Below are positions 1 through 29,281 of a stretch of DNA of 64,000 nt, piece by piece (the stretch's first letter is position 1; each line of letters starts with the position of its first letter). Position numbers and translations under genes: made by a program. Origin of the DNA: Pseudomonadota bacterium (GTDB lineage Bacteria; Pseudomonadota; Gammaproteobacteria; Nevskiales; Nevskiaceae); contig JBBTCH010000003.1 in NCBI GenBank assembly GCA_038043245.1, positions 100,601 through 164,600 of the forward strand, in the 5' to 3' direction. Under the pieces are notes generated by a model, which searched no databases, was not told the origin of the DNA, and saw nothing but the letters and a program-made list of their open reading frames with translations.

Positions 1-120
1 AGCGCCAGCGCCGCGTCTTCAGCAGCGCAGGGACGCGGCCTGTTGCTCGGCGGTCTCGCACTTTCGACCTTGCTGGCCTTCGCCGCGTTCGCGTCTTTCC
101 GTTTTCTTCTGACCCCGTAA
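1..120 (+). CDS. 3' end of an upstream gene (partial); C-terminal tail ...GRGLLLGGLALSTLLAFAAFASFRFLLTP*
   Basis: Frame is open from the window edge to TAA at 118-120. The Gly-rich then hydrophobic tail resembles the tail of the 5316..6638 protein. Confidence 0.35.
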   Translation, partial: SASAASSAAQGRGLLLGGLALSTLLAFAAFASFRFLLTP

Positions 121-126
121 TCCCCA

Positions 127-1482
127 ATGAACAAATACCTGCTGGCCTGCGCATTATTGATACACACACATGTTTCTTACGGCGGCGTCAGTGCCGATGA
201 GGCAGCTCGGCTCGGGCGGGATCTCACTCCGATCGGCGCCGAGCGTGCGGGCAACGTCGAGGGCAGCATCCCCGAATGGACGCCGCTCCGGCCTTACGGC
301 AGTCCGCCGGGAAAGTACACGCTGGATCCGAAGATGGCCGAGGAAAAACCGCTGTTCACGATCACGGCGGCGAATGCCGCGCAATACGCCAATCGCCTGA
401 CGGCGGGCCACCGCAAACTCTTGCAGACGTATCCGACCTACCGGATGCAGGTCTATCCGAGCCGGCGTGATGTCAGCTGGCCCGACGCCATCGTGGATGC
501 CACGCGCGTTAATGCGACGCGTTGCGGGCGTGACGGCGACGAGACGCTCGACAACTGCAGGCTGGGATTCCCGTTTCCGATTCCGCAGGCAGGCGCCGAG
601 CCGATCTGGAACCACAAGCTGAAATGGCGAGGCGAGGCGCTGACCCGCTACAACAACCAGCTGATCGTGCAAAGCGACGGCCGTTATCAGCTGACCAAGC
701 TGGTGGAGGACGTGGACTATCCGTACGCCAGCATCGTCAATCCAGTGCCACTGACGCGCACCTCGGCCGAGTTCTCGCGCTATCTGTCGCAGACCCTGGC
801 GCCGCCGCGGCTCGCGGGCACGTTCCTGCTGTTCGTTGACCGTGTCGCCGCCGGCAGTCAGGGCCGCGCCGGCTGGACCTACTCGCCCAGTCTGCGTCGA
901 GTGCGTCGCTCGTCGAACCTGTGCTGCGACAACCCTTACGAGGGCACCGACGGCCATCAGTTCTACGACCAGATCGACATGTTCAACGGCACCTTGTCGC
1001 GCTTCAACTGGCAACTGCTCGGCAAGCGCGAGCTGTACATCAGCTACCACGCCAACCGCATCGCCAACCCCAAGATCAAGTACGCCGACATGGTGCGGCC
1101 CGGCCACTTCAATCCGGAGCTGCCGCGCTACGAGCTGCACCGCGTCTGGGTGGTGGAAGGCACGGTGAAGCCGAGCGTCTCGCACACCTTCAAGCGGCGC
1201 GTGCTGTATCTCGACGAGGACACCTGGACCATTGTCGCCGTGGATGCCTATGACCATCGCGACGGGCTGTATCAGTTCCAGGAGGGGCATCTGCTGGTCG
1301 CCGCACGCATGCTGGCCGGCTTCACCTCGCCCGAGCTGATTTACCACTTCAGCTCCGGGCGTTATTTCGTGACCGGCGTCGCCAACGAGGACAAGCCGCC
1401 CAATACCGACCCCAAGTTCCCCGCCGACCACTTCACGCCCGAGGCTTTGCGCAGGCGTGCGAGCGTGGGCGCGGGCGAGTAG
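127..1482 (+). CDS. DUF1329 family periplasmic/outer-membrane-associated protein
   Basis: Signal peptide followed by VSADEAARLGRDLTPIGAERAGNVEGSIPEWTP, which I recall as the characteristic N-terminal signature of DUF1329 proteins. The 451-aa length is typical. Confidence 0.8.
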   Translation: MNKYLLACALLIHTHVSYGGVSADEAARLGRDLTPIGAERAGNVEGSIPEWTPLRPYGSPPGKYTLDPKMAEEKPLFTITAANAAQYANRLTAGHRKLLQTYPTYRMQVYPSRRDVSWPDAIVDATRVNATRCGRDGDETLDNCRLGFPFPIPQAGAEPIWNHKLKWRGEALTRYNNQLIVQSDGRYQLTKLVEDVDYPYASIVNPVPLTRTSAEFSRYLSQTLAPPRLAGTFLLFVDRVAAGSQGRAGWTYSPSLRRVRRSSNLCCDNPYEGTDGHQFYDQIDMFNGTLSRFNWQLLGKRELYISYHANRIANPKIKYADMVRPGHFNPELPRYELHRVWVVEGTVKPSVSHTFKRRVLYLDEDTWTIVAVDAYDHRDGLYQFQEGHLLVAARMLAGFTSPELIYHFSSGRYFVTGVANEDKPPNTDPKFPADHFTPEALRRRASVGAGE

Positions 1483-1524
1483 TTGGGAACATTGACATTT
1501 GTATAAAAACATGTATGTTCCCAA
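1483..1524 (+). promoter_or_regulatory. Candidate sigma70 promoter embedded in a perfect 10-bp inverted repeat (operator-like)
   Basis: TTGGGAACAT (1483-1492) and ATGTTCCCAA (1515-1524) flank an AT-rich core. The core contains TTGACA (1492-1497), a 16-nt spacer and TATGTT (1514-1519). Confidence 0.4.
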
Positions 1525-1608
1525 GCAAAGCACTATGACGGTCAAGCGTTACTTCCGTACCGGCCTTGACCGCCAATAACCATAACGGTGCGGGCAAGGA
1601 GATCAGCA

Positions 1609-2649
1609 ATGAGTCGTATTTCTTTGGTGGCAGATGCAGGGTTGTGTTCGCGTGTGGTAGCGGCAATCGTGGCGATATTCGTTGGGGGCTATTCAGCACA
1701 AGGCTTGGCTCAGACCGACGCGCAGAGAATTCAGGCGGCGACGACGACCGCCAATACCAATGCGTTCTGCAATGCGCTGCCCAAGTTTTACTGGGAGATC
1801 GGCAAGGGCAGCCAGAGCACGCCGATGGCCAGTGGCAGCCGTGGCGGCGGGGCACCCTCAGCGACGACCCAGATGCCGGTTTACTCCGCCAGCAAATGGG
1901 TCTACGGCGCCTATGTCTTCCAGAAGCGCAGTGGTGTGCTGAGCACGGCGGATCGGCGAGCGGCCACCATGAGCATGGGCTATACCGAAAACAGCGCGTG
2001 TCTGTTCGATACCACCGTCGGCACTTGTCACACCGCGATGGACGCCTATGACCCGGCCGCATTGGATAAATTCTTCTACGCCTCCGGGCACTTCCAGAAG
2101 CACGCCTCGGTCGATCTCGCGCTTTCGGCCATGAACAAGACGCAACTGGCTACCGAAATCCATAGCCAGGTCGGCAGCGATTTCGTTTTTACCTACAACC
2201 AGCCGCAGTTGGCGGGGCGCGGCAAGAGCAGCGCGACGGACTACGCGAAATTCCTGCGCAAGATCCTGAATGGGCAGTTGCTGTTGTCCGGCAGCGCATT
2301 GGGGTCGGACGCCGTCTGCACCTATACCGACCCGACGGATCCGCTGACGGGGAGGACGAACTGTCCCACCGCGTTGTACTCGCCTGTCGATGATGCCGCA
2401 GTCGGTCTCCAGGAAGCCTGGCACTACTCGATCGGGCACTGGGTGGAAGATGACCCGGTGTGGCTTGCGAACGGTGGTGATGCGGCCTACAGCAGCCCCG
2501 GCGCGGCGGGTTTTTATCCCTGGATCGACTCCTCGCGAACCTATTACGGGATTCTTGCCAGAAATGAGGTAGGCGCCACCTCCTCCGGGGAGTCGGTTAA
2601 ATGCGGGCGGTTGATCCGCAAGGCCTGGCTCACGGCTACCGCGCAGTAG
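1609..2649 (+). CDS. Secreted beta-lactamase-fold-like serine hydrolase, paralog A1
   Basis: AGGAG lies 8 nt upstream of the ATG at 1609. Signal peptide ends ...AQGLAQ. SxxK motif in YSASKW, YASGHF, and SSPGAAGFYPWID parallels SSPGAYGVHGWID of the 6642 enzyme. About half the residues match the next gene. Confidence 0.7.
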   Translation: MSRISLVADAGLCSRVVAAIVAIFVGGYSAQGLAQTDAQRIQAATTTANTNAFCNALPKFYWEIGKGSQSTPMASGSRGGGAPSATTQMPVYSASKWVYGAYVFQKRSGVLSTADRRAATMSMGYTENSACLFDTTVGTCHTAMDAYDPAALDKFFYASGHFQKHASVDLALSAMNKTQLATEIHSQVGSDFVFTYNQPQLAGRGKSSATDYAKFLRKILNGQLLLSGSALGSDAVCTYTDPTDPLTGRTNCPTALYSPVDDAAVGLQEAWHYSIGHWVEDDPVWLANGGDAAYSSPGAAGFYPWIDSSRTYYGILARNEVGATSSGESVKCGRLIRKAWLTATAQ

Positions 2650-2656
2650 TTGTCCT

Positions 2657-2689
2657 GGATCAGGCAGAGCTGAAACCTCTGCCTGATCC
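2657..2689 (+). terminator. 13-bp perfect hairpin directly after paralog A1
   Basis: GGATCAGGCAGAG-ctgaaac-CTCTGCCTGATCC. There is no clear U-tract on the + strand. Confidence 0.4.
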
Positions 2690-2809
2690 AAAATGGCTGA
2701 GCATCCCTTCCGCGTCGGACTCAGTTGCCAAACCGTCGTGGCGCGAACGAGGAGATCAACGATAAACCGAGACATTTCATTCGTGGAGGGATTCAAAGGG
2801 TTCCGGGGC

Positions 2810-3865
2810 ATGTGCGTATTGCTGGCCATCGCCCTCGCGTTCCCGGCATCCGCGCAGACCATCGCAGCGCGGACGCAGGCGGTCACCGACACCATCAACA
2901 ACAACAAGGATCTGGGCGAGATCTGCGCGATGGATTTCTACTGGGAAATCGGCGATCGCGATGCCCAGCGTGCTTCGGGCCAGAAGGGCACCTCGTTCAA
3001 GGCGACCACCGACATGCAGATTTATTCCGCCGGCAAATGGCTCTACAGCGCTTATGTGTTTCAGAAGCGTGGCGGTCAGCTGACCGCGGCGGACAAGGAC
3101 GCCCTGCGCATGCAGTCCGGCTACAACCAGAGCAATGCCTGCCTGGGCACCGCCACGCTTGCGCAATGCCAGAATCTGATGAATACCTACACTTCCTCGG
3201 CGGATATCAATAACCAGTACTACTACGCAGGCGGCCATTTCCAGAAGCATGCGACCGCCGTGCTGGGCATGGGCAGCAAGACCAAGCCGCAGATGGTGGC
3301 CGAGATGCAGGGCACGGCTGCCAGCCCACTGCTGAACACGCCCGACGGCGCCGACACCAACGTCGTTTTCACCCTGGCGACGCCGGTGATGGCCAGCGGC
3401 CACAAGACCACCGCTACCAACTACGCGGTGTTCCTGCGCAAGATGCTGAGCGGAACTCTGCTGCTATCGGGCAGCGCCTTGGGGTCGGATGGCGTGTGTA
3501 CCTATCCCGCTCCTAGTAATGCCCAAACCGGGCGCATGAATTGCCCGGGCGCGATTTATTCTCCGGCAGCGCCGATCCAACCTGGCGTGTATGAAGTGGA
3601 TGGTGGGACGAATGAGGCCTGGAGCTATTCCATAGGCCACTGGGTCGAGACCGATCCAGTCTGGCTCGCCGGCGGCGGTGATGCCGCCTACAGCAGCGCC
3701 GGCGCCGCCGGATTTTATCCGTGGATCGATTCGTCACGAACCTATTACGGCATTCTGGCGCGCAACATCCTGACCACCACCTCGGCCGGCGAGTCGGTCA
3801 AGTGTGGTCGCCAGATCCGCAAGGCTTGGTTGACGGGTATCGCGGCGCCGAGCGGCGTGCAATGA
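2810..3865 (+). CDS. Secreted beta-lactamase-fold-like serine hydrolase, paralog A2
   Basis: Signal peptide MCVLLAIALAFPASAQ; a GTG at 2783 is an alternative start. Motifs YSAGKW (SxxK), YAGGHF and SSAGAAGFYPWIDSSRTYYGILARN are collinear with A1. Confidence 0.7.
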   Translation: MCVLLAIALAFPASAQTIAARTQAVTDTINNNKDLGEICAMDFYWEIGDRDAQRASGQKGTSFKATTDMQIYSAGKWLYSAYVFQKRGGQLTAADKDALRMQSGYNQSNACLGTATLAQCQNLMNTYTSSADINNQYYYAGGHFQKHATAVLGMGSKTKPQMVAEMQGTAASPLLNTPDGADTNVVFTLATPVMASGHKTTATNYAVFLRKMLSGTLLLSGSALGSDGVCTYPAPSNAQTGRMNCPGAIYSPAAPIQPGVYEVDGGTNEAWSYSIGHWVETDPVWLAGGGDAAYSSAGAAGFYPWIDSSRTYYGILARNILTTTSAGESVKCGRQIRKAWLTGIAAPSGVQ

Positions 3866-4107
3866 GTTTTTAAGCGCCACCCGCTTACGGTCGTTTACGG
3901 ACCGTGGCGGTGCTTGGGACGAACAGCGGGGGCCGTCCATGGATAAAATCAACCATTGAATTTTTCGTGAAGACAGGTATGTTTATTCATCGAATCGGGC
4001 CGGGCTGAGAGGAATTTCGGATCAAGCATCAAACAACGCGCCGGCAATGGATTGCTCGCACACAACACAAGGGACTGTTCAACTTCGCGGCGCCGCTGTT
4101 AGCGCTG

Positions 4108-5223
4108 TTGCTGCTGGCGGTTGCCGGCCTCGCCGCCTGCGGCCCTTCCAGTGCGCCAGTGGGCGGCGGCAACCCGCTGGTGTGCGCGCCCATCACACTG
4201 CCGACGCCGAGCGGCGCAGGCAGCGCAATCGACGGCCCAGCGCCAGCCTATGACTGGCAGGGCGACTGGCAGAGCTGCGAGGTGTTGTTTGTCTCGAAGC
4301 TGCACGGCTCGCAACTCTATGGCGTGCTGTTCGCGCCCAAGAACATCGATCTCGCCCGCGACAAGTTGCCGGTGGTGGTGATTGCGCCGGGCTCGGCCAC
4401 CGGTGTGCAATCGCAGTATCAATGGTCGGCGCGCGATCTCGCCGGGCATGGCTACCTCGCGCTGACGGTGGATCCGCAGGGCGTGGGCCGCTCCGAAGCG
4501 GTTGCACCGCCGCAAACGGCGGACAACTACATTGATGCCGTGGTCAGCGCGCTCGACTACCTGCTGTCCGCCGAGAATCCGCTGCGGGCGAATGTCGATG
4601 CCGCCCGCATGGGCGCAGCGGGCCATTCACTTTCTGCGCGCGTCGTCAGCTTTCTGCAGGGCGAAGACACCCGTCTTCAGGCGATCGTCGCCTGGGACAA
4701 TCTCTCCAGCACGGTCGAAGGCGATGCCGGGATCTCCAGTGGCGGCGGTACCTGTGGCGCTGTGATCGGCGGCGAGGTGCCGCTGGGGTCGCGACCCGCG
4801 CGCCAGCGGGTGCCGGCGATGGGGCAGGCCTCGGATGCGCCCGGTGGCTGCACCCAGGACACCGATCCCGAGGTGAAAAAAACCGGCTACAACACCTGGC
4901 GCAACGCGGGTATTTCCAGCATGCAGATCGTCGTCCAGGGCAAGGCGCATGCCGATTGGGCGCAGTCGCTGGTGGCGGATGCCAGCTCGGAGAGCCCGAA
5001 GTCAAAAGAGTTGCAGCTGTTCCAGCACTACACGCGCGCCTGGTTCGATCTCTGGCTCAAGCAAGACCCCAGGGCCATCGCGGCGCTGACCGCCTCGCAA
5101 GTGTTTGAGAACACCCTGCAGACGATCTACAGCGTGGACTTCCGCTCGGCGCTCTTTCTGCCCAATGCCGGCATTGACTGCCCGGACATTCTCTCGGGCG
5201 GCTGCCCTGCGTTTGCGCCTTGA
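4108..5223 (+). CDS. Lipoprotein alpha/beta hydrolase (dienelactone-hydrolase/cutinase-like), paralog B1; start unresolved
   Basis: Lipobox LAAC. WSARDLAGHGYLALTVDPQGVGRSE, then the nucleophile elbow GHSLS. The only ATG/GTG/TTG in frame is TTG 4108, which truncates the signal peptide (see finding). Confidence 0.7.
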   Translation: MLLAVAGLAACGPSSAPVGGGNPLVCAPITLPTPSGAGSAIDGPAPAYDWQGDWQSCEVLFVSKLHGSQLYGVLFAPKNIDLARDKLPVVVIAPGSATGVQSQYQWSARDLAGHGYLALTVDPQGVGRSEAVAPPQTADNYIDAVVSALDYLLSAENPLRANVDAARMGAAGHSLSARVVSFLQGEDTRLQAIVAWDNLSSTVEGDAGISSGGGTCGAVIGGEVPLGSRPARQRVPAMGQASDAPGGCTQDTDPEVKKTGYNTWRNAGISSMQIVVQGKAHADWAQSLVADASSESPKSKELQLFQHYTRAWFDLWLKQDPRAIAALTASQVFENTLQTIYSVDFRSALFLPNAGIDCPDILSGGCPAFAP

Positions 5224-5274
5224 CCCCGGCGCCATGCCCCAGGCTGTCGTTGCTGTTTTTACTGTTCAGGGGCG

Positions 5275-5397
5275 CACCCGCTTACGACTGAAAACCGCTT
5301 TCAAATAGCATTTCGATGAACAAGGTGATACTAAAAATGTACCAATCTATTTTTGCTGCGAGGCTTGCGAGGCCCCAACAGGGCAGAAGCGGGTGGG
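5275..5397. repeat. MITE-like element, copy C (degenerate core)
   Basis: Left end CACCCGCTTA, core GGTGATACTAAAAATGTACCA, right end AGAAGCGGGTGGG. Collinear with the copies at 13098 and 30181. Confidence 0.6.
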
Positions 5398-6638
5398 CGT
5401 TTTTGCTGCTCTGCATGGCCTGGTTTGCGCCGGCAGTGCCTGTGTCGGCTGCGGTATGCGAGGAGAACAACGCCTCGCCTGGCATCGCCGCCGATGAGGC
5501 GCTAGGCCGGCAGGAGCCGTTTGATTGGCAGGGTGAGTTTGTCGAGGACGATGGCATCTGTTTTCCGTCGCGCAACTCCGGCGCGCAGTTGCGCGCCTTT
5601 CTGCTGGCGCCGGCGAATATCGAGAGCCTGCCCGACGGCTCGCTGCCGGTGGTGGTGATCGGCCCCGGCAGCGGCGGCGCGGCCCGGGCGATGAATTACC
5701 TGTGGTCGGCGCGCGATCTGGCCGGTCACGGCTATCTCGCCTTGTCGGTGGATCCGCAGGGTGTCGGCCGCTCTGAGGTCAACGGCGGCGAGCCCAACGG
5801 CTGCGGCGCCAGCGGCTGCCCCAATGCGCCGTTCCAGAAAGCCAGCAATTTCGTGGATGGACTGGTCAGCGGCGCGGATTATCTATTTACGCGCGAGCAT
5901 CCCTGGCTGAAGAAAGCCGATCTCACGCGCATCGGCGTGGCGGGTCATTCGCTGTCTGCGCGGGCCGCGACTTATATCGGTGGCCTTGATGAGCGTTTCA
6001 GCGCAGCGGTCGGCTGGGACAACATGTCGAGCGATCTCAACGGTGACGCCGGCATTTCCAGCGGCGGTGGCGCCTGCGGTTCCGCGATTGGCGGCGAGCC
6101 ACCGAGTGCGCCGGTGATCGCGCCGCCGCGCGTTCCGACCATGGGCCATGCCTCGGATGTGCCGGGCGGCTGCACGCAGGACACTAATCCAGAGGTGAAA
6201 AAAACCGGCTACGAGCACTGGCGCGCCGCTGGCACGGCGACGATGCAGCTGGTGTTCAAGGCGGCCGCGCACGGCGACTGGGCGCACACGTCGAGCAGCA
6301 CCTCTGAGCAATTGCAGTTGTTCGAGTACTACACGCGCAACTGGTTCGATCTTTATCTGAAACGAGACGAAGGCGCGCGCCTTCGTCTGCTGATGCCGGA
6401 GATTCTAGCGATGACGCCGGATCAGATTTACTCGGCGAGCTTTCGCTCGGCCGCATTCATGCCCGAGGCCGGCGTGGACTGCCCGGACCTGTTGGTGGAA
6501 GCCTGCCGGCCGCCGGCCGGAAAAACGCTGGGTAGCGGGCTGCTCCTGGGCGCGCTCGGCCTGGGTCCAGTATTATTACTGCTGATGCTTGCTGCGATAT
6601 CGCGCTTAAAGCTGGGCCAGACCACGCAAGGACGCTAG
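5316..6638 (+). CDS. Secreted alpha/beta hydrolase, paralog B2, with C-terminal hydrophobic sorting-like tail
   Basis: WSARDLAGHGYLALSVDPQGVGRSE, GVAGHSLSA and VPGGCTQDTNPEVKKTGY match B1. The 5' end, including the ATGs at 5316 and 5337, lies inside MITE copy C, so the start is uncertain. Confidence 0.7.
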   Translation: MNKVILKMYQSIFAARLARPQQGRSGWAFLLLCMAWFAPAVPVSAAVCEENNASPGIAADEALGRQEPFDWQGEFVEDDGICFPSRNSGAQLRAFLLAPANIESLPDGSLPVVVIGPGSGGAARAMNYLWSARDLAGHGYLALSVDPQGVGRSEVNGGEPNGCGASGCPNAPFQKASNFVDGLVSGADYLFTREHPWLKKADLTRIGVAGHSLSARAATYIGGLDERFSAAVGWDNMSSDLNGDAGISSGGGACGSAIGGEPPSAPVIAPPRVPTMGHASDVPGGCTQDTNPEVKKTGYEHWRAAGTATMQLVFKAAAHGDWAHTSSSTSEQLQLFEYYTRNWFDLYLKRDEGARLRLLMPEILAMTPDQIYSASFRSAAFMPEAGVDCPDLLVEACRPPAGKTLGSGLLLGALGLGPVLLLLMLAAISRLKLGQTTQGR

Positions 6639-6641
6639 TAA

Positions 6642-7880
6642 ATGCGCAATCTCTTTCAAGAATTTCAACTACAGACGAGAGGTCGGGGGGTCCGCGTGTT
6701 TGCCAGCGCGGCGCTGGTCGGATGTGCGGTTGCCGGTTGCGGCCTGCCATCGTCGGAGGTGGCGGTGCAGTCCGGCAGAAACGCATCCGGTTCCTGGCCG
6801 GAGATCGACGAACGTCTGCAACGCGCGGTGCGCCCAGCTGCGCCTGGCGTGCCGTGCCAGGGAGGATATTCGGCGGAATCCTGTGGTCTGGAATTGCGTT
6901 TCGGCTCGCGCGATCAGCTGTGGTACGACCAATCGTTTGGCGAGTGGACCCGGGACGCGCAAGTGCCCATTGCGTCTGCCAGCAAGTGGCTGACGGCGGC
7001 GGCCATCATGACCCTGGTGGACGAAGGCACGCTCGACCTGGACGCGCCCATCAGCACTTACTGGAGCGGTCTGGACGCTGACCACGGTGCCATCAGCATG
7101 CGCCAGCTTCTGTCCCATACGTCGGGAATGGTTCATCATGCTCCCTGCACCCACGACCAGCAGATACATACCCTCCAGCAATGCGCGCAGGAAATCCTGC
7201 TGCTGCCGTTGGCGGCAAAGCCGGGCACCACATTTCTATACGGGGCACCCAGCTTCCAGGTGGCCGGCGCCATCGCAGAAAAAGTCAGCGGCCAGTCCTG
7301 GCGCGACCTGTTCAAGGAACGGATCGCCGATCCGCTCGGAATGACAAAAACCCTGTACGGCTCGACCCGGGGGCAGTTCGCGGACACCACCAGCAATCCT
7401 CAACTGGCGGGAGGGGGAATCTCCACGGCCAGTGACTATTACGCGTTCCTGGACATGATGATGCAGCGGGGAATGTTTCAGGGCCGCCGGGTTTTGTCCG
7501 AACGCGCCTATGACGCGATGGAGCGCAGCAATACGGGCGGCGTAAGCCGTTATGAATGCCCGTTGACCGAGGCGGCCTGCTATCCGGTCTGGCCCACGGC
7601 CGGTTTTGCGCTGGGCAATCCCGCGACCGGCAGCGTGCCGTATGGGCTGGGCAACTGGCTGTTTCGTGTGGACAGCGACTGCAACGGCACGCTGGTCTCA
7701 AGCCCCGGTGCCTACGGCGTGCACGGCTGGATCGATACCATCCGAGGCTATCGCGGACTGTTGTTCATGAACGGCGACTACACGGCGTCAGCGCCTATAT
7801 TTGAGGATCTCCTCTCGATTCTGGATCAGCGCATTCCCCAGCGCACGGCGCCCGAGGCGCCGCTTAAGGATTGCGCCTAG
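6642..7880 (+). CDS. Beta-lactamase-family serine hydrolase (esterase family VIII / class C-like), lipoprotein
   Basis: Lipobox VAGC. IASASKWLTAAAIMTLVDEG (SxxK), LLSHTSGM and SSPGAYGVHGWID. Confidence 0.85.
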   Translation: MRNLFQEFQLQTRGRGVRVFASAALVGCAVAGCGLPSSEVAVQSGRNASGSWPEIDERLQRAVRPAAPGVPCQGGYSAESCGLELRFGSRDQLWYDQSFGEWTRDAQVPIASASKWLTAAAIMTLVDEGTLDLDAPISTYWSGLDADHGAISMRQLLSHTSGMVHHAPCTHDQQIHTLQQCAQEILLLPLAAKPGTTFLYGAPSFQVAGAIAEKVSGQSWRDLFKERIADPLGMTKTLYGSTRGQFADTTSNPQLAGGGISTASDYYAFLDMMMQRGMFQGRRVLSERAYDAMERSNTGGVSRYECPLTEAACYPVWPTAGFALGNPATGSVPYGLGNWLFRVDSDCNGTLVSSPGAYGVHGWIDTIRGYRGLLFMNGDYTASAPIFEDLLSILDQRIPQRTAPEAPLKDCA

Positions 7881-7906
7881 GGTCGAAGCTGATCCCCGAT
7901 CGATTG

Positions 7907-10486
7907 ATGCGGGCCGCGTGCCTGATGATTGTCGCGGGCCTCGGCGCATGTGGCGAGAGCCGGCCTCGCGAGCCGGCCCGTTCAATGCAGGCGGCAAGCC
8001 CGCAGATCGAAACCAGCGCCGCAGGCTTTCTGTCACGCCCTGAGATCGTGCTGCCGCCCCGCAGCCAGGTCATCAAGAGCGTGGATCTCGCAGGCGGCTG
8101 CGGTATTGCCCCAAGCGACGGTGGCCGGCAGGTGGACGGCCGCGCGGAGGACTGGAAAGGCTCGCCGACGGAAATCGCCGGCACGCATCGTTACGACGCG
8201 GGCGAATACCTGTGGAGCGACTTTCCGTTCGACGACGCCGGCGACGGCGCTTTTCAGTATCCCGGCGAAGCCACGCCGATCGTGGCGCAGGACGGCACCG
8301 CCGGAACCGCCAGCGAGCTGATGCAGCGTTACGGCGCGAACGCGGCCGACGTCGTCGAATTCCGCGCGGCGGCGGATGCGTCCACGCTGTATCTGCTGGT
8401 GCGGCTGAATTTTCTTAACGCGCTCAACAGCACCGTCGTTGGGCTGGGGTTTGATCTGGATCGCAACTCCGCCACCGGTTTCACCGCCTGGCCGCGCGGC
8501 GCCAACATCGACAGCGCCGGTCGTGGCCTCGACTTGTTCATCACTGCGTTCGGGGCCTGCGCCTACGTTACGACGCCCGCCGGCGAGCAAGCGCTGGATG
8601 CGCAGGGCGGCGCGATCCACACCGGCACGCGCGACAACGTCATGGAGATCGCGCTGCCGCTGGCCTTGCTGAATGGCGCGCAGGTTTTCGATGTCGTTGG
8701 CGGTAGCGGCCTGTGGGACGCGGCTGCGCAGAGCTGGATGCCGGTGGCGATGTCCGGCTCGGGCGCCAACGCCAACCCGACGCCGCGCGGCAAAAACACC
8801 GCGGGTGCGCCGGAAGTGTTCAACCTGATGTTCCGCGACGACGAGGCTTCGATCAACGCCTGCGCCGGCGTCGTCAACACCGACGCCAACTGCATGCCGG
8901 CCTCGTTCCACTCGTTTCAGGCGCGCAATCAGGTGCAGGCGCTGCGCGCAGGTACCAGCGGCCCGTATGCCGCTCAACTCGATCTCGCACGCTTGCAGCC
9001 CGGTGCATCCAGCGATCCGCAAGTGATTCGGCGTGGCGCCGAGACGTTTTTCACCCGCGTCTACCGCTCGCGGATCGACGCCGAAGGCGTGCTGCTATCG
9101 GGCAACAACGCGGTGTTCACCAGCCGCTATCAGCCTTACACCCTGTACGTGCCGGCCTGTTTCGAGCAGGGCTGCGCGCAGTGGCCGGACCCGGCGCGCG
9201 CGCCGCTGGCGTTGCAGTTGCACGGCGGCGGCAACGATCACCTGTCCGCCTCGCCGCGGCCTTCGATCCCGGAAGGTGGCAATGCGCTCTACGGCAGCGA
9301 GGATTTCTTCGCCGCCTACGACCGCGAATCCGCCGCGCTGATCGCCAGTCCGCTTGGGCGCGGCCTGCAGTTGCCTTCGTGGCGTGGCTACGGCGAAGCG
9401 GACGTGCTCGAAGTGCTCGACTCAGTCCGTGCAACCTATCGCAGTGATTCTGAGCGGCAGGGCATCATCGGCGGATCACAGGGCGGCTTCGGCACGTTTC
9501 GCATGGCCGGGTTTTATCCCGACCTTTGGAATTCCGTCTCGGTCGAATGTCCGGTGGCCAACGAAGCCAGCTCCAGCAATCCGCAGGGTCATGTTGTGCC
9601 GTCCACCGTGCCGTTCGTGATCGACGTGCTGATCCCCGCGCTGATCAACCTGCCTTATCTGCAGGGCAGCGGCACGCTCGATCCACTGGCGCCCATCACC
9701 ATGAACCAGCGTTTGCGCGATGCGGCGCTGGCCGCCGGTCTCGACGTCAAGTACACCGAGTACCTCGCCGGCAGCCATTGCTTCGATGTCGCGCAGGCGG
9801 CCTATCCCTACACCAATGCCGACGCCGCCGCCGCTGCGCGCGCGCTGCTGCTGCCGCGCCTGGCCCAGCCGGCGCGCGTGCGCTACCGGATTGACCCGCG
9901 CCAATATCCGCCGGCGGCGTTCAACGGCTTGTTCGATATCCGCGATGTCGGCGTGAGCTATGCCGGTGCGAACTGGGTCTTTGGTCTGCGCATGCGCCCG
10001 GACATCGAGTCGCTGGCCGCTTCGGGCGGCGCACCCGGCGGCACCGACGAAACCTCTCTGGGAGATTTCACGGCCGTGAGCCACGCCCTGCCGGGCTGGC
10101 AGATCACCCTCGAAGATTGCGTTGAAGGCTTGCCGGTGGGCATCGCCGGGGTCGCTGGCGGCAACCCGCAGAGCGAGCCGCTGTTGTTCAGTCCCAATGC
10201 CTACCAATGTCAGCGCCAGGTGCGTGGCGGCGAGTTTGCGCCGCTGCTGGAGTTGAGCGCCAGGAATCTTGAAGCCGCGGCTGTGGACCTCGCCGCCGCC
10301 GGCCTCGCGGACCAGGCCTTTGCGGTGCAGGCGCAGGGCGACGGTGCGTTCGAACTGCATCTGACCGCGAGCGCCTTACGCAACGCCGGCGGCGCCTGCG
10401 TGCAGAAATTCACGGCCGAGTCCGAGAGTGCGATCCTGCATTTACAATTGAGCGCGAACCTCTGCGAGATTCGCCTTGAGCCCTAA
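7907..10486 (+). CDS. Large lipoprotein: glucodextranase-C-like N-terminal domain plus C-terminal alpha/beta hydrolase
   Basis: MRAACLMIVAGLGAC lipobox. YLWSDFPFDDAGDGAFQYPGE resembles the glucodextranase-like surface domain. GGSQGGFGTFRM is a GxSxG elbow. The ORF track start at 7871 is a TTG overlapping the upstream gene. Confidence 0.75.
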   Translation: MRAACLMIVAGLGACGESRPREPARSMQAASPQIETSAAGFLSRPEIVLPPRSQVIKSVDLAGGCGIAPSDGGRQVDGRAEDWKGSPTEIAGTHRYDAGEYLWSDFPFDDAGDGAFQYPGEATPIVAQDGTAGTASELMQRYGANAADVVEFRAAADASTLYLLVRLNFLNALNSTVVGLGFDLDRNSATGFTAWPRGANIDSAGRGLDLFITAFGACAYVTTPAGEQALDAQGGAIHTGTRDNVMEIALPLALLNGAQVFDVVGGSGLWDAAAQSWMPVAMSGSGANANPTPRGKNTAGAPEVFNLMFRDDEASINACAGVVNTDANCMPASFHSFQARNQVQALRAGTSGPYAAQLDLARLQPGASSDPQVIRRGAETFFTRVYRSRIDAEGVLLSGNNAVFTSRYQPYTLYVPACFEQGCAQWPDPARAPLALQLHGGGNDHLSASPRPSIPEGGNALYGSEDFFAAYDRESAALIASPLGRGLQLPSWRGYGEADVLEVLDSVRATYRSDSERQGIIGGSQGGFGTFRMAGFYPDLWNSVSVECPVANEASSSNPQGHVVPSTVPFVIDVLIPALINLPYLQGSGTLDPLAPITMNQRLRDAALAAGLDVKYTEYLAGSHCFDVAQAAYPYTNADAAAAARALLLPRLAQPARVRYRIDPRQYPPAAFNGLFDIRDVGVSYAGANWVFGLRMRPDIESLAASGGAPGGTDETSLGDFTAVSHALPGWQITLEDCVEGLPVGIAGVAGGNPQSEPLLFSPNAYQCQRQVRGGEFAPLLELSARNLEAAAVDLAAAGLADQAFAVQAQGDGAFELHLTASALRNAGGACVQKFTAESESAILHLQLSANLCEIRLEP

Positions 10487-10609
10487 GCCGGTCAACGTCG
10501 TCAAGAAATCCCGTCTCGCCCTCGCCACCCTAGCGCGCTTCGCCGGTGGGGTCTGGGTCATCGAGCTGCCGGCTGGCGGCAATCAGCTCAGCATCACGCC
10601 CTGAACCCC

Positions 10610-12298
10610 ATGAGCACGTATCCGCCCCCCACTGAAGCCTTCGTCCGCGCGCGTGATTTCCTGTTTGCGCATCGCAGCGATTACGCCGCCGCCTATGCCG
10701 GTTTCGAGTGGCCGCGCCTTGCGCAATTCAACTGGGCGCTGGATGTCTTCGATATCGAGGCGCGCGGCAATGTGGCGCTCGCCCTGTGGGTGGTGAACGA
10801 GGATGGCAGCGAGTCGCGCATCACTTACGAGCAGATGCGACAGCGCTCCAATCAGGCCGCCAATTTTCTGCGCGGCTGCGGTGTTGCGCGCGGCGATGTG
10901 CTGCTGATCATGCTGCCCAATGTGCTGCCGCTGTGGGAGCTGATGCTGGGGGCGATCAAGATCGGTGCGGTGCTCAGCCCCGCAACCACGCTGCTCGCAG
11001 CGGCGGATTTGCAGGATCGCATCACGCGCGGCGACATGCGCCTGGTGATTGCCGATGTCGCCAGCACGGCGAAGTTTTCTGAAGTGTCCGGCAGCTACAG
11101 CCGCATCGTGGTCGGCGGCAGCGTCGCGGGCTGGCAGCGCTACGAACCCGCAGTGGCAACCGAGTTCGTGCCGCAGGGCGCAACCGAGGCCAGCGATCCG
11201 CTGCTGCTCTACTTCACCTCCGGCACCACGGCGAAGCCGAAGATGGTGCAGCACACCCAGCAGAGCTATCCGGTCGGGCATCTCTCCACGCTCTACTGGC
11301 TGGGCCTCAAGCCCGGCGATGTGCACCTCAACATCAGCTCGCCCGGCTGGGCCAAGCATGCCTGGAGCTGTTTCTTCGCGCCCTGGAATGCCGGGGCGAC
11401 GGTGTTCATCAACAACCAGCCGCGCTTTGATGCCCGGCAGACCCTCAGCACGCTGGTGCGCTGTGGCGTCACCAGCCTGTGCGCGCCGCCGACGGTGTGG
11501 CGCGCACTGATTCTCGAAGACCTTGCCAGCTACCCGGTGCGGCTGCGCGAGTTGATTGGCGCGGGCGAGCCCTTGAACCCGGAGGTGATCGAGCGCGTGC
11601 GCGCGGCCTGGGGCCTCACCATCCGCGACGGTTACGGCCAGACCGAAACCACCTGCATGATCGGCAACCCACCGGGCTGGCCGGTGCGCGAGGGTTCGAT
11701 GGGGGTGCCGATGCCGGGTTACCGCATGGCGCTGGTGGATGAGAACGATGTGGCGAGCAATGAAGGCGAGATCGCGGTCGCACTGCGGCCTGCACCGGCG
11801 GGTGTGATGGCGGGCTATCGCGGCCAGCCGGAGCGCAATGCGGCGCTGCTGGGGGGTGCGTACTTCCGCAGCGCCGATGTCGCCCGCCGCGATGCCGAGG
11901 GCTATTACTGGTATGTCGGCCGCAGCGACGATGTGTTCAAGTGCTCGGACTACCGCCTGAGTCCGTTTGAACTCGAAAGCGCGCTGCTGGAGCACGCTGC
12001 CGTCGCCGAGGCCGCCGTGGTGCCCAGCCCGGATGCGATCCGCCTCAATGTGCCGAAGGCGGTGGTGGTGTTGAAGCCCGGCATGGCTGCTGATGCGCAC
12101 ACCGCGAAAGCGCTGTTCGACTTCATCCGCACGAGACTTGCGCCCTACCAGCGCATCCGCCGCATTGAGTTCGCTGAGCTGCCCAAGACCGTCTCCGGCA
12201 AAATCCGCCGGGTCGAGCTACGCGCCACGGCCGTCGAGCGTCAGCAACAAGGCCTACGCGGCCCTGCCGAGTTCTGGGAAGAGGATTTTTCAGCATGA
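10610..12298 (+). CDS. AMP-dependent acyl-CoA synthetase (medium-chain-like)
   Basis: LYFTSGTTAKPKMV AMP-binding motif, GYGQTETT and SGKIRR at the C-terminus. Confidence 0.9.
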   Translation: MSTYPPPTEAFVRARDFLFAHRSDYAAAYAGFEWPRLAQFNWALDVFDIEARGNVALALWVVNEDGSESRITYEQMRQRSNQAANFLRGCGVARGDVLLIMLPNVLPLWELMLGAIKIGAVLSPATTLLAAADLQDRITRGDMRLVIADVASTAKFSEVSGSYSRIVVGGSVAGWQRYEPAVATEFVPQGATEASDPLLLYFTSGTTAKPKMVQHTQQSYPVGHLSTLYWLGLKPGDVHLNISSPGWAKHAWSCFFAPWNAGATVFINNQPRFDARQTLSTLVRCGVTSLCAPPTVWRALILEDLASYPVRLRELIGAGEPLNPEVIERVRAAWGLTIRDGYGQTETTCMIGNPPGWPVREGSMGVPMPGYRMALVDENDVASNEGEIAVALRPAPAGVMAGYRGQPERNAALLGGAYFRSADVARRDAEGYYWYVGRSDDVFKCSDYRLSPFELESALLEHAAVAEAAVVPSPDAIRLNVPKAVVVLKPGMAADAHTAKALFDFIRTRLAPYQRIRRIEFAELPKTVSGKIRRVELRATAVERQQQGLRGPAEFWEEDFSA

Positions 12299-13095
12299 GC
12301 AATGCACAGCTGCCCGTCAGCATCGAACGGCGCGAGCGCACCGCTATCGTCACGCTCAACCGCGGCGACGGACGCAACGCGCTCAATACCGAGGCGATGA
12401 CCCTGCTGCGTGATATCGCTCTGGAGCTGGCGCGCGATCCCGATCTCGGCGTGGTGATCGTGCGCGGCGAGGGGGCGTTTTCTGCGGGTGTGGATCTTTC
12501 CGAGTTGGCGCAAGGCAAACCCGGTGCCGGAAAGACGGTCGCCGAGCTGCGCGAACTGGTGAAGCTCGGCCCGGCGATGTGCAAGGCCTGGGAAGACATC
12601 GAAGCGTTCACCATTGCCGCCATCGAGGGTTACTGTGTCGGTGGCGCTGCCGCGCTCGCCGCCAGCGTGGATTACCGCGTGCTGGGCGAATCGGCATTCC
12701 TGCGCCTGCCGGAAGTGCCGCTGGGCATCAACATGAGCTGGCAGACGATTCCGCGGCTGGTCGCGCAGATCGGCCCCGCGCGCACCAAGCAGTACGTGAT
12801 TCTGGGCAAGCGCATCGCCGCAAAGCAGGCGCTGGATTGGGGCTTGTGCGAAGAAGTCACAACGGACGGCAAAACGCTCGAAGCCGCGCAGAAACTCGCC
12901 GCCGAAATTCTGGACCTGCCGCCACTGCCGGTGCGCATGACCAAGCAGACCGTGAATGCCGTCGCCAACGCATTGAGCACGCTGACCTCGCACATGGACC
13001 GCGATCAGTACCTGTTGACGACCCAGACTCAGGATTTCGCCGAGGCTGTCGCCGCCTGGCGTGACAAACGCAAGCCGAAATTCACCGGGAATTGA
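12295..13095 (+). CDS. Enoyl-CoA hydratase/isomerase (crotonase) family
   Basis: The ATGA overlap with the upstream stop suggests translational coupling. FSAGVDL and AAIEGYCVGGAAALA are crotonase motifs. Confidence 0.9.
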   Translation: MSNAQLPVSIERRERTAIVTLNRGDGRNALNTEAMTLLRDIALELARDPDLGVVIVRGEGAFSAGVDLSELAQGKPGAGKTVAELRELVKLGPAMCKAWEDIEAFTIAAIEGYCVGGAAALAASVDYRVLGESAFLRLPEVPLGINMSWQTIPRLVAQIGPARTKQYVILGKRIAAKQALDWGLCEEVTTDGKTLEAAQKLAAEILDLPPLPVRMTKQTVNAVANALSTLTSHMDRDQYLLTTQTQDFAEAVAAWRDKRKPKFTGN

Positions 13096-13097
13096 CC

Positions 13098-13219
13098 TAC
13101 CCGCTTGAGGCCATTTACAGGCTTCAGGGGCCGATTCCGAAAAACACGTGGTACTAAAAGTGTACCACCCGTTTTCTCGAACCGGTCTTGCAGGCTCTAA
13201 AAAGACCTCAAGCGGGTGG
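13098..13219. repeat. MITE-like element, copy A
   Basis: TACCCGCTTGAGG ... GTGGTACTAAAAGTGTACCAC (13148-13168) ... CCTCAAGCGGGTGG. The ends are terminal inverted repeats. Confidence 0.7.
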
Positions 13220-13284: not shown

Positions 13285-13361
13285 GCGCCCGTAGCTCAGT
13301 TGGATAGAGCACTTGGCTACGAACTAAGGGGTCGGAGGTTCGAATCCTTCCGGGCGCACCA
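13285..13361 (+). tRNA. tRNA-Arg: tRNA-Arg, anticodon ACG, CCA encoded
   Basis: Hand-folded cloverleaf. Acceptor GCGCCCG/CGGGCGC, D arm GCTC..GAGC, anticodon stem CTTGG/CTAAG with loop CTACGAA, T arm GGAGG-TTCGAAT-CCTTC. Confidence 0.95.
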
Positions 13362-13417
13362 GTTTTCGGACGAAAAAGAAACCCGCTCTTGGCGGGTTTT
13401 TTCGTTTGAGGACGCGC
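13341..13417 (+). repeat. Left copy of island-flanking direct repeat (tRNA 3' half plus terminator)
   Basis: Matches 24577-24657. The first 27 nt differ at one position. Confidence 0.8.
13379..13406. terminator. Rho-independent terminator after tRNA-Arg
   Basis: AAACCCGC-tcttg-GCGGGTTT followed by TTTCGTTT. Confidence 0.7.
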
Positions 13418-13678
13418 CCCGAGGTTCCCTCCGAGCGGCGGTAATACCACCCTGTCGAAGGTAGCGCGGCTCATCCATGAGCCGCAGCTTTCGGCCTCGC
13501 TACGCTCGCACTATCAGCATATCCATGTAGCTGATAGCCGAATCCTTCGGGGCCACATTTTTTAATGCACGGCAGGTCGTTTCCGTCCCGCCTCCCAACT
13601 GGTATAACAGCGCGCAAGAAGATGCGCCGGCATCCGACAAGGTTCAACTGCGACGACGTGCTGATTGGGGAGGAAAGG

Positions 13679-15049
13679 GTGGAAAAAATCACGCTGGATC
13701 AGCTGAAAGACCTCTATCCGCTTAACCAGCATCCAATACAGGTAGCGGAAGAACTGCTGCCGACGGTTCGAACCCGCTGGTATTCGAGCGGCCGTTCCCT
13801 GTTCAATGTCGGCGACAGTCCAGACGACTATTTTTACGTGCTCGAGGGTTCGGTCGTGCTGTCCGACCGCGACCAGCAGCGCGGTCAAACCGTCGGGCCG
13901 GTTTCGCAGGAAGAAGCGATTCCGATGCCGTACATGGTGCCCAGCGTTCATCTGGCATGGGCCGCCACTGACGCCAGAATTCTGCTGATCGATCGCAGGC
14001 AATTTCTGGATGTCATTCAGAAGGCCAAATCGCGCAGGCTCAGCGCGCTTGCCCAATCGTCCGCCGGCGGTTCCGCGGATCTATGGGCAGCCGACGCCGC
14101 CGTTTCCCATCCGGCCCCGGGAACCGTGCCTGCGCCGGCGATAAATCCAGGAGTTCGCGGGCCAGCCACGGCTCCCGCACCGATCTCCGAGGAATTCGAG
14201 AGAAATCTGGCGTTGGGCCGCGCGCAAATCCCTGAGCCGCCGCAAACGCCGATGCCGGCGCCCGATGAGCCCGAGCAGAAACCAGCGAGTGAGCCTCCGG
14301 CTGCGGATGCGCCGTTGCACAGCGAGCCCGGGACCGCCCACATGGAGCGCATCCTGCTGGTCGAGGATCACCCGACCGACGCCAAGATGGCGCAACTCAT
14401 GCTGAAAACACTGGGCTACGGTTCGGACTGGGTCAGCGGCGGCCCCCAGGCATTGAGCGCGATGGAGCGAAAGCGCTACCAGATTGTTCTTCTGGATGTG
14501 CAGCTGCCGGGGGTGGATGGGTTTGAAATCACGCGGTGTATCCGCGAACGCTGGCCCGGCGCCGCCGGGCCGCACATCATCGCGCTGACGGCGCGCAGCC
14601 TGAAGGGGGACCGCGAAGCCTGTCTTGCCGCCGGCATGGACGATTACATTCCCAAACCCATTTCCATTCACCTGCTGAGCGCAAAGCTCAATGACGAGAA
14701 CTGGGCGCTGGTGGATCCGAAGGTCATCGAGCATTTCGCCATGGCGGTCGGCAAGACCGGAGTGACCGCGCTGATCGACTCCTATCTGGACGCAATGCCC
14801 AGCATGATCGCGGACCTGCACAAGGCGGTGGCTGCAAATAATGCCAAAGACTTGCACCTTGCAGCGCATTCGCTGAAAGCGGCCGCGCAGGTTCTGGGCG
14901 TCCATCTCATCGCCGGTTACGCCGCGAAACTAGAAACCCTCGGCCGGTTCGCCAAGCTCGATGGCGCTCCGGCATTGCTCAGCCAGATCGACAGCGTGCG
15001 CCAGGAAACCGTGATCGAGCTGCAGAAGCTGCGCACGTTATATGGCTGA
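13679..15049 (+). CDS. cNMP-binding-like / receiver (REC) / Hpt fusion protein
   Basis: GGAGG lies 5 nt before the in-frame GTG at 13679; the ORF is open from 13565. GRSLFNVGDSPDDYFYVLEGSVVL is CAP-effector-like. REC: ILLVEDHPTD...LLDVQLPGVDG...YIPKP. Hpt: AAHSLKAAAQVLG. Confidence 0.75.
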   Translation: MEKITLDQLKDLYPLNQHPIQVAEELLPTVRTRWYSSGRSLFNVGDSPDDYFYVLEGSVVLSDRDQQRGQTVGPVSQEEAIPMPYMVPSVHLAWAATDARILLIDRRQFLDVIQKAKSRRLSALAQSSAGGSADLWAADAAVSHPAPGTVPAPAINPGVRGPATAPAPISEEFERNLALGRAQIPEPPQTPMPAPDEPEQKPASEPPAADAPLHSEPGTAHMERILLVEDHPTDAKMAQLMLKTLGYGSDWVSGGPQALSAMERKRYQIVLLDVQLPGVDGFEITRCIRERWPGAAGPHIIALTARSLKGDREACLAAGMDDYIPKPISIHLLSAKLNDENWALVDPKVIEHFAMAVGKTGVTALIDSYLDAMPSMIADLHKAVAANNAKDLHLAAHSLKAAAQVLGVHLIAGYAAKLETLGRFAKLDGAPALLSQIDSVRQETVIELQKLRTLYG

Positions 15050-17469: not shown

Positions 17470-17512
17470 CGGCTGGCGCTACACGCCAGCTGGATTTTCC
17501 GGAGTCTGTCGG

Positions 17513-29200: not shown

Positions 29201-29281
29201 GAGCGAAGACGAGGGCACCACGGTGTGGCCCTTGCTCCTGAAAAACTCCAGGAATTTCGCTCGCAGCTCATTCGTATTCAT
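26243..29281 (-). CDS. alaS: Alanine--tRNA ligase carrying two in-frame insertions (1012 aa)
   Basis: [19 protein letters not shown]..., [31 protein letters not shown] and a C-Ala domain. About 135 aa longer than the ~875-aa bacterial norm (from memory). Confidence 0.95.
27326..27424. repeat. Triple-hairpin palindromic element inside the alaS coding sequence
   Basis: CCCTCTCCCCC-tt-GGGGGAGAGGG (27328-27351). GGGGTGAGGGG...CCCCTCACCC (27354-27392). CCCTCTCCCCG-tgaaa-CGGGGAGAGGG (27396-27422). Confidence 0.8.
27797..28135 (-). other. AT-rich in-frame insertion (~112 codons) within alaS
   Basis: Hand count gives 128 G+C in the 300 nt 27841-28140 (~43%), against the GC-rich remainder of the gene. 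The reading frame is uninterrupted. Confidence 0.8.

Follow-up and report, generated by a model that had tools for sequence, protein, structure and literature searches.

What is the function of six consecutive genes for secreted serine hydrolases in the genome of a bacterium of the family Nevskiaceae (Gammaproteobacteria; assembly GCA_038043245.1), and on which substrate do their products act? The genes are located in a stretch of 64,000 nucleotides of the contig JBBTCH010000003.1 (positions 100,601 to 164,600), referred to here as the window. Nine consecutive genes fill the + strand between positions 127 and 13095 of the window, from a gene encoding a DUF1329 protein through a gene encoding an enoyl-CoA hydratase (ECH) (Table 1). 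The six hydrolase genes occupy positions 1609–10486 and comprise the pairs A1/A2 and B1/B2, a beta-lactamase-family gene (BLA) and a gene for a large three-domain esterase (BIG). They are followed by the overlapping genes of an acyl-CoA synthetase (ACS) and of the ECH. An earlier sequence-only reading had described six co-directional genes for exported or lipoprotein hydrolases linked to CoA-activation genes, and all of them are present on the + strand essentially where it had placed them. The multi-esterase catabolic cluster is real and conserved, contains uncharacterised subfamilies of known hydrolase folds and is larger than the sequence-only reading showed: the window contains the downstream half of an approximately 21-kb co-directional catabolic gene cluster. 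We propose that the cluster probably combines surface or exported esterases with acid import and CoA activation, and that the substrate which it serves is ester-linked and possibly a polyester.

Table 1. Features of the hydrolase cluster and its borders, in coordinates of the window.
Feature	Position	Strand	Remarks
EstPHB 3′ end (437-aa PHB-depolymerase/feruloyl-esterase-family esterase)	1-120	+	part of upstream operon
DUF1329 (LolA-like) protein with signal peptide	127-1482	+	PF07044 E 1e-115; LolA_like E 3e-8
Perfect inverted repeat TTGGGAACAT-N22-ATGTTCCCAA	1483-1524	.	overlaps promoter-like site TTGACA-16-TATGTT at 1492-1519
A1, exported serine hydrolase (predicted), 346 aa	1609-2649	+	ORF opens GTG 1588; Pfam: no match
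Hairpin, 14-bp perfect stem, 7-nt loop, no T-run	2656-2690	+	directly after A1 stop codon
A2, exported serine hydrolase (predicted)	start GTG 2783 or ATG 2810, end 3865	+	ORF opens 2693; Pfam: no match
B1, PETase/cutinase-like alpha/beta hydrolase, probable lipoprotein (LAAC)	4108-5223	+	PF12740 39 bits
B2, paralog of B1, signal peptide and C-terminal hydrophobic tail	5316-6638	+	Pfam: no match
BLA, PF00144 beta-lactamase-family lipoprotein (LVGC)	6642-7880	+	PF00144 E 8e-50
BIG, three-domain lipoprotein esterase (LGAC), 859 aa from ATG 7907	7907-10486	+	ORF opens TTG 7871
ACS, AMP-binding short/medium-chain acyl-CoA synthetase	10610-12298	+	AMP-binding domains
ECH, enoyl-CoA hydratase/crotonase	12295-13095	+	ECH_1 E 1e-36
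Terminator-like hairpin	13148-13168	.	reads on both strands; marks cluster end
tRNA-Arg(ACG)	13285-13361	+	flanked by hairpins 13148-13168 and 13379-13399

The genes of the cluster are closely spaced. The start codon of the ECH gene overlaps the stop codon of the ACS gene (ATGA), as expected from the translational coupling that had been proposed for this pair, and BLA begins 3 bp past the end of B2. The N-terminal export signals of the hydrolases were read by eye, and this reading revealed Sec signals in A1, A2 and B2 and lipoboxes in B1, BLA and BIG. The motifs YSASKW and YSAGKW of A1 and A2, GHSLS of the B proteins and GGSQGG of BIG were verified in the sequence, as was the pair of motifs SSPGAAGFYPWID and SSPGAYGVHGWID, in which the C-terminal likeness between A1/A2 and BLA is apparent.

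Comparative genomics supports a shared catabolic role of the hydrolases and the CoA-activation genes. A core of the cluster is conserved in at least four independent loci with 50–93% identity (related loci are designated here by L numbers). In L082, the genes of a TauE protein, a TetR regulator, an A protein, a major facilitator superfamily (MFS) transporter, a large Big_9 protein, B, BIG, ACS and ECH follow each other with overlapping stop and start codons. The same core is present in L083, with two A genes and with a fusion of Big_9 and B. In L089/L090, located in the metagenome-assembled genome (MAG) JAZKFO01, the genes of TetR, A, MFS and a 1547-aa fusion protein are followed by B1 (84% identity), BIG (69%), a 789-aa BIG-like gene, ACS (93%) and ECH (76%), and the operon continues into genes of a FadB-like protein, a thiolase, a FadE-like protein and a biotin carboxylase; the convergent strand of L090 carries genes of TonB receptors, a COesterase, an AMP-ligase and a B-like protein. 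L183 and L184 each contain genes of MFS (90–92%), EstPHB (84–87%) and an A2-like protein, followed by a B-family or an EstPHB-like gene, and in L102 an A2-like gene adjoins an ACS homologue. Distant BIG homologues in L085–L088 lie beside genes of PETase-like, Esterase_PHB and PF00144 proteins, MFS, TetR or Crp, and AMP-ligases.

Exported esterases are co-located with an importer, a CoA ligase or beta-oxidation genes in L082, L083, L089/L090, L085, L183, L184 and L102. In seven loci, namely the window, L082, L083, L089, L102, L183 and L184, A genes of two subclades have TetR or MFS on one side and an esterase or ACS gene on the other. Several of the activities are also joined in single polypeptides. 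The 1547-aa protein (L089, positions 5157–9800; JAZKFO010000006.1) consists of an EstPHB-like domain, a second alpha/beta hydrolase, a B2-type domain and Big_9 repeats, and its 1571-aa analogue in L085 carries PKD domains. The conserved order, the translational coupling and the domain fusions argue for one pathway. The predicted tie between the hydrolases and the CoA-activation genes is therefore borne out, since A, MFS, B, BIG, ACS and ECH are kept together in several related genomes and contigs.

The upstream half of the cluster was recovered from L081, a sequence that overlaps the window by 7464 identical bases and runs 7.8 kb further upstream. There, genes of a carboxyltransferase, a family III CoA-transferase, a second carboxyltransferase, B3, an MFS transporter and EstPHB precede the DUF1329 gene, and all of them through DUF1329 are joined by 4-bp overlaps or by gaps of 5–6 bp. 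DUF1329 starts 6 bp after the EstPHB gene, and this operon lies mostly outside the window. The transporter, also outside the window, is of the anion symporter type. With it, the uptake part of the earlier interpretation has gained an importer; the extracellular depolymerisation and the polymeric substrate, which were part of the same interpretation, remain inference. The two carboxyltransferase-domain genes, which flank the CoA-transferase (L081, positions 3–3954), are translationally coupled to B3. Carboxyltransferase or CoA-transferase genes also precede MFS–esterase modules in L085 and L095. In L183 and L184 the A2-like gene follows EstPHB, whereas in the present genome DUF1329 and A1 lie between EstPHB and A2 and look inserted. 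DUF1329 was found in none of the 80 A-family loci and in none of the 23 screened loci fetched via B, BIG or A2-like proteins. The link between the hydrolases and DUF1329, to which the sequence-only reading had attached weight, is consequently specific to the genome of the window.

The products of B1 and B2 share 51% identity (E 1e-114). B1 matches PF12740 with 39 bits (cut-off 28), over residues 71–195 only. Its PDB matches, among LCC, cutinases and PETases, extend over the first half of the fold. No PF12740 match was obtained for B2 and B3 in the Pfam scan. Across 39 B homologues the nucleophile Ser157 (GHS), a WD motif, His264 and a C-terminal pair of cysteines are invariant, the canonical position of the catalytic acid is occupied by D or E in nearly all sequences, and the nucleophile elbow reads G-H-S-L-S/G. 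The assignment of B1 and B2 as cutinase- or dienelactone-hydrolase-like enzymes with a GHSLS elbow agrees with these results. B-family proteins are approximately 350–440 aa long; a Gly-rich insertion of approximately 40 aa follows the WDN motif, and the C-terminus is extended. Judged from the alignment, B1 and B2 form a PETase-like clade characterised by this insertion. Many members carry PKD domains, and the large proteins of relatives combine the B domain with Big_9 repeats. Orthologues of B1 (77–84% identity) are located directly upstream of BIG in relatives, where the B2 orthologue (57–61%) is a domain of surface proteins of 1111–1571 aa, three of them with Big_9 repeats. B1 and B2 are old paralogs with separate orthologues elsewhere and not recent tandem duplicates. 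B3 is a third B paralog, upstream on the same contig, and the homologue P0128, 63% identical to B1, is a candidate fourth paralog, its longest contig being listed with the length (279,373 bp) that is also given for the proteins of the window. The broad B alignment was too divergent for the locus searches, and the search patterns were taken from a narrower one. The hydrophobic C-terminal tail of B2 did not match known sorting-signal models, including PEP-CTERM and GlyGly-CTERM. In the B1 region (4009–4140), the frame upstream of the TTG start reads ...RTQHKGLFNFAAPLLALLLLAVAGLAAC, a complete lipoprotein signal. This frame has no ATG, GTG or TTG before 4108, and B1 may start at ATT 4051 or CTG 4075.

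BIG belongs to a rare family, with only 18 homologues found among 5.8 billion clusters. In its structural model (pLDDT 83.7, pTM 0.89), an alpha/beta hydrolase is preceded by an N-terminal beta domain and followed by a C-terminal beta sandwich. In the alignment (P0241 numbering), G496, S498 and G500 of the GGSQGG motif are invariant, and D566 and H598 are nearly so. The closest relative of the catalytic domain is LC-Est1C (3WYD; phmmer E 1e-9; TM 0.78–0.86, rmsd ~3 Å), followed by esterase D and feruloyl esterases; the catalytic domain dominates the matches of the whole protein in Foldseek. In Pfam, BIG remains just under the cut-offs for Esterase (PF00756; 21.9 versus 22 bits) and Peptidase_S9 (21.7 versus 22.6 bits). 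Neither of the outer domains has a direct Pfam match, the N-terminal domain does not match PF09985 even at E <= 10, and its profile gave only chance matches against PDB sequences. By an exhaustive search, 255 representative clusters with this domain were detected, and in most of them it is the N-terminal part of an esterase of 700–900 aa. One homologue, P0299 (phmmer E 1.4e-16 to the BIG N-terminal domain), matches PF09985 (Glucodextran_C) in the same region with 30.2 bits against a cut-off of 22. The N-terminal domain may thus be related to Glucodextran_C via this intermediate homologue only. The gene had been described as a glucodextranase-like domain combined with a GxSxG hydrolase; the 859-aa lipoprotein esterase is confirmed, and the glucodextranase part has indirect support, through P0299. 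The preceding gene, BLA, had been counted as a part of the same set, but it is absent from all of the related operons compared.

The fate of the released acid is indicated by ACS and ECH. The nearest PDB entries of ACS are 4-hydroxybutyrate-CoA ligase (8BIQ, E 5e-122), MacS (3ETC) and ACSM2A, and it scores 390 bits against the NCBIfam model MbcS. The enzyme is 88–95% identical in relatives. Its substrate is not assignable, because its scores lie below every equivalog cut-off. The nearest PDB entries of ECH are short-chain hydratases and dehydratases. These relatives of ACS and ECH, together with the beta-oxidation genes that follow them in L089/L090, point to an aliphatic acid of short or medium chain length, possibly a hydroxy or dicarboxylic acid, as the imported product, and an ester of a short or medium aliphatic (hydroxy)acid is the favoured substrate. 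A ferulate route, consisting of feruloyl esterase, feruloyl-CoA synthetase and hydratase/lyase, was considered and rejected: generic short-chain hydratases are the nearest relatives of ECH, whose top matches include no hydroxycinnamoyl-CoA hydratase-lyase model.

In the scheme that we propose, an ester-linked substrate outside the cell, probably an aliphatic polyester or oligomers of it, is attacked by exported and surface-anchored serine esterases. These esterases would come from three superfamilies, represented by the PETase/cutinase-like B1, B2 and B3, by the LC-Est1/PHB-depolymerase–feruloyl-esterase-like BIG and the 437-aa EstPHB, and by the beta-lactamase-fold proteins A1, A2 and BLA. 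The latter most likely finish soluble oligomers in the periplasm. The MFS transporter of the anion type, whose gene lies just upstream of the window, would then import the short- or medium-chain (hydroxy- or dicarboxylic) acid that is released. The acid would be activated by the ACSM/4-hydroxybutyrate-CoA-ligase-like synthetase, and the translationally coupled crotonase would hand the product to beta-oxidation. The folds and catalytic motifs, the conservation of gene order, the fusions and the beta-oxidation genes that follow in a relative are observed, whereas we infer the export routes, the order of action and the identity of the substrate. The number, the families and the surface anchoring of the exported esterases suggest that the substrate is polymeric. 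A more far-reaching proposal is that A, B and BIG would be three uncharacterised families of polyesterases and oligomer hydrolases. They would belong to a conserved, regulator-controlled system at the cell surface that depolymerises an aliphatic polyester, natural or synthetic, of the polyhydroxyalkanoate (PHA), cutin/suberin, or poly(butylene succinate)/polycaprolactone (PBS/PCL) type, and from which monomers pass to the MFS transporter, the CoA ligase and beta-oxidation; the 1547-aa protein of a relative would unite three of its catalytic domains in one enzyme. We advance it tentatively and rather doubt it in this full form.

The same logic of hydrolysis, import and activation might be applied to a small or lipid-type ester, such as a wax, an acylglycerol, a steryl or terpenyl ester, a plasticiser diester or a surfactant ester. 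In Pseudomonas putida, DUF1302 and DUF1329 genes are required for growth on the fatty esters butyl stearate and Tween 20 (bioRxiv 10.1101/2020.07.04.188060). By analogy, such a role would fit the theme of the locus, and it is no proof of a role of DUF1329 here. The continuation of the relative's operon into a full beta-oxidation set and the lack of a detectable canonical polymer-binding domain speak for a small ester as well. The same is true of the lineage: the closest match of the alanyl-tRNA synthetase among the loci returned is from a Nevskia sp. MAG (76% identity), and a WS/DGAT wax-ester synthase is encoded in the genome. This enzyme had been cited earlier as a sign of neutral lipid storage; its gene is indeed present at 59847–61316, but 47 kb away and unlinked to the cluster. 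On the other hand, six to eight exported esterases are many for a small ester. Among them are enzymes of the PETase/cutinase-like type and of the PHB-depolymerase family, some of them anchored at the surface, and relatives have Big_9/PKD repeats and multi-catalytic fusions. ACS, moreover, resembles short/medium-chain and not long-chain ligases. We therefore regard a small or lipid-type ester as an unlikely substrate, albeit the most serious competitor of a polyester.

The nature of the A family bears on the kind of bond that is cleaved. A1 and A2 share 51% identity (E 5e-108), and neither of them has a Pfam match at E <= 0.1; PF00144 is matched weakly by 7 of 50 members of the family, with a best E value of 1.6e-5. 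A homologue search returned 375 proteins, nearly all of them unnamed or hypothetical. In 50 aligned sequences, S73 and K76 of the Ser-x-x-Lys motif, Y139, H277 and five cysteines are invariant, and a sixth cysteine is nearly so. The AlphaFold2 model of A2 (pLDDT 91.8, pTM 0.91) has only beta-lactamase-fold proteins as top neighbours in Foldseek (probability 1.0, TM ~0.5–0.57), among them 5TGF, EstG, the R61 DD-peptidase, LovD, EstB, Est-Y29 and class C enzymes. In an hhalign comparison of the family profile with BLA, 264 columns were aligned with a probability of 98.2%. The motifs SxxK, Tyr and SSPG coincide, with S73/K76 falling on SASK of BLA and Y139 on its Tyr, and the C-terminal third of A2 resembles BLA with E 9e-8. 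In class C enzymes, the second motif is Tyr-x-Asn, and the Tyr is the general base in family VIII esterases. The A family keeps this Tyr, whereas the Asn is not conserved (Y-A-G-G-H). The third motif position reads S-S-[PA]-G, with no basic residue, and BLA and 5TGF read alike. The remote-homology and structural analyses thus agree with the SxxK motif and the family VIII-type fold that had been predicted for A1 and A2. On the grounds of the model, the A family is a peripheral, uncharacterised subfamily of the beta-lactamase/penicillin-binding protein (PBP) fold. In a neighbour-joining tree, A1 and A2 fall into separate subclades, and the A genes of the L082, L083 and L089 operons belong to a third; A1 and A2 are therefore old paralogs. 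Of the two tandem paralog pairs proposed for this locus, the paralogy holds, with the same identity in each pair, but both pairs are ancient, with separate orthologues, and not recent duplicates.

With this fold, A1, A2 and BLA might also cleave amide bonds, as in D-amino-acid peptides, lipopeptides or nylon-type oligomers, and the substrate of the locus would then be an amide or a mixed ester/amide. The neighbours of the A2 model do include, besides the R61 DD-peptidase, a D-stereospecific amidohydrolase, an alkaline D-peptidase, a DL-peptidase and a putative 6-aminohexanoate-dimer hydrolase. The esterases and acyltransferases EstG, EstB, Est-Y29, EH7 and LovD are equally close, however, all other hydrolases of the locus are of esterase families, and the locus does not contain peptide or amino-acid catabolic genes, which makes an amide substrate very improbable. 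It is slightly less probable again that A1, A2 and BLA are envelope maintenance enzymes, either PBP-like or acting like EstG on periplasmic glucans, which merely lie beside catabolic genes. The top structural matches do include EstG, a periplasmic esterase with a link to osmoregulated periplasmic glucans, and the A family is widespread, with 433 matches among species-representative genomes, usually solitary and with variable neighbours. The occurrence of two A subclades in seven esterase/ACS loci is hard to explain without a shared function. A chance aggregation of six hydrolase genes with no common function is the least credible explanation, since the conserved core, the overlapping stop and start codons and the fusion of three esterase domains in a relative stand against it, even if DUF1329, A1 and BLA are not conserved at their position in relatives and gene order varies between genomes.

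Several observations weigh against the proposed catabolic role of the cluster on a polyester or its oligomers. Most A-family genes in other genomes are solitary, with variable neighbours; B or BIG genes were found in only one of the 80 A-family loci examined (L004), and no neighbour family occurs in more than 11 of them. The clustering of open reading frames at these high-GC loci was crude and was used only for the latter result. The general role of the A family may therefore differ. A1 and A2 are also not orthologous to the A gene of the L082, L083 and L089 operons. The cluster of the window has no TetR gene beside the operon and no FadB or thiolase gene after ECH, and the two carboxyltransferases and the CoA-transferase upstream are without explanation in the proposed pathway. 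A classical polymer-binding domain was not found in the proteins analysed, the only candidates being the N-terminal domain of BIG with its transitive Glucodextran_C likeness and the Big_9/PKD repeats of relatives. Export of the hydrolases is predicted from signals read by eye, and searches of the literature revealed no characterised members of the A, B or BIG clades and no described loci of this kind.

The expression of the genes from A1 onwards may be controlled from the DUF1329–A1 spacer. The site at 1492–1519 is the only promoter-like site in the region (consensus match only). This site and the inverted repeat that overlaps it are candidates for the promoter and the operator of A1 and the downstream genes. 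In the related loci, the spacers between TetR and A (L082, 1888–2145; L083, 2316–2546; L089, 2406–2645) share a promoter-like stretch TTGAC(G/A), followed by AAATAAACA(C/T)TAGTATTTTCC. The near-palindrome around ACTAGT in these spacers is, judged from its sequence, a likely TetR operator.

The content of the window downstream of ECH is unrelated to the cluster. A protein with cNMP-binding, receiver and Hpt domains (13565–15049) is followed by chaperone-usher pilus genes (16717–19906) and by housekeeping genes. The position of the tRNA-Arg gene after the cluster raised the possibility of a genomic island, which is not supported, as there is no integrase nearby and the GC content is uniform. The Rfam scan detected only the tRNA, and tandem repeats were not found. 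The alanyl-tRNA synthetase (26243–29281, – strand; 1012 aa) contains an insertion of approximately 110 aa (residues ~383–494; ~27800–28135) that is absent from its Nevskia and Steroidobacter homologues. The window further encodes an HTTM-domain protein (49606–51441) and a 589-aa alpha/beta hydrolase (52967–54736), besides the WS/DGAT synthase.

If the proposed role is correct, the cluster provides a set of cooperating esterases from three superfamilies, which are candidates for polyester or oligomer hydrolysis, and it could illustrate the way in which hydrolysis at the cell surface is coupled to uptake and beta-oxidation in environmental Gammaproteobacteria. Current domain libraries barely detect two of the clades, the A family and the BIG family, the latter with a rare N-terminal module, and the B family is an unusual long form of PETase-like enzymes. 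Should the substrate be a common lipid ester, the locus would be an ordinary catabolic operon with unannotated hydrolase subfamilies.

Each part of the cluster can be compared with a known system. With the superfamily of class C beta-lactamases, R61 and family VIII esterases (PF00144; EstB 1CI8, EstG 7UDA, 5TGF), A1 and A2 share the fold, Ser-x-x-Lys and the Tyr of the second motif. They differ in the lack of a Pfam match, in their third motif, S-S-[PA]-G instead of K/H-T/S-G, and in the conserved cysteines. B1 shares the nucleophile elbow, the Trp-Asp after the next strand, the catalytic His and the C-terminal Cys pair with the polyesterases of the PETase/LCC/bacterial cutinase type (PF12740). 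The latter are compact single-domain proteins of ~260 aa with a GHSMG elbow, whereas the B proteins are longer by the insertion and the extension described above, have GHSLS in B1 and B2, fall below Pfam detection in B2 and B3, and are often anchored or fused to PKD/Big_9 repeats; their activity is predicted only. BIG has the catalytic fold and the GxSxG Ser-Asp-His triad in common with LC-Est1, a metagenomic esterase of which 3WYD is the C-terminal esterase domain, and each of the two carries a large N-terminal extension. Unlike LC-Est1 and the esterase D, PHB-depolymerase and feruloyl-esterase families, it combines three domains with a lipobox, sub-threshold Pfam scores and a family of only 18 close homologues. 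ACS is similar over its full length to the short/medium-chain acyl-CoA synthetases 8BIQ, MacS, ACSM2A and MbcS, with scores under the equivalog cut-offs. The DUF1329 protein is, as in the DUF1302/DUF1329 pair PP_0765/PP_0766 of P. putida, a full-length LolA-like protein, here encoded beside ester-hydrolysis genes; it is flanked by the esterase gene and A1 with no adjacent DUF1302 gene, the rest of the window being unscreened for DUF1302. The locus offers uncharacterised enzyme subfamilies, but no new kind of system.

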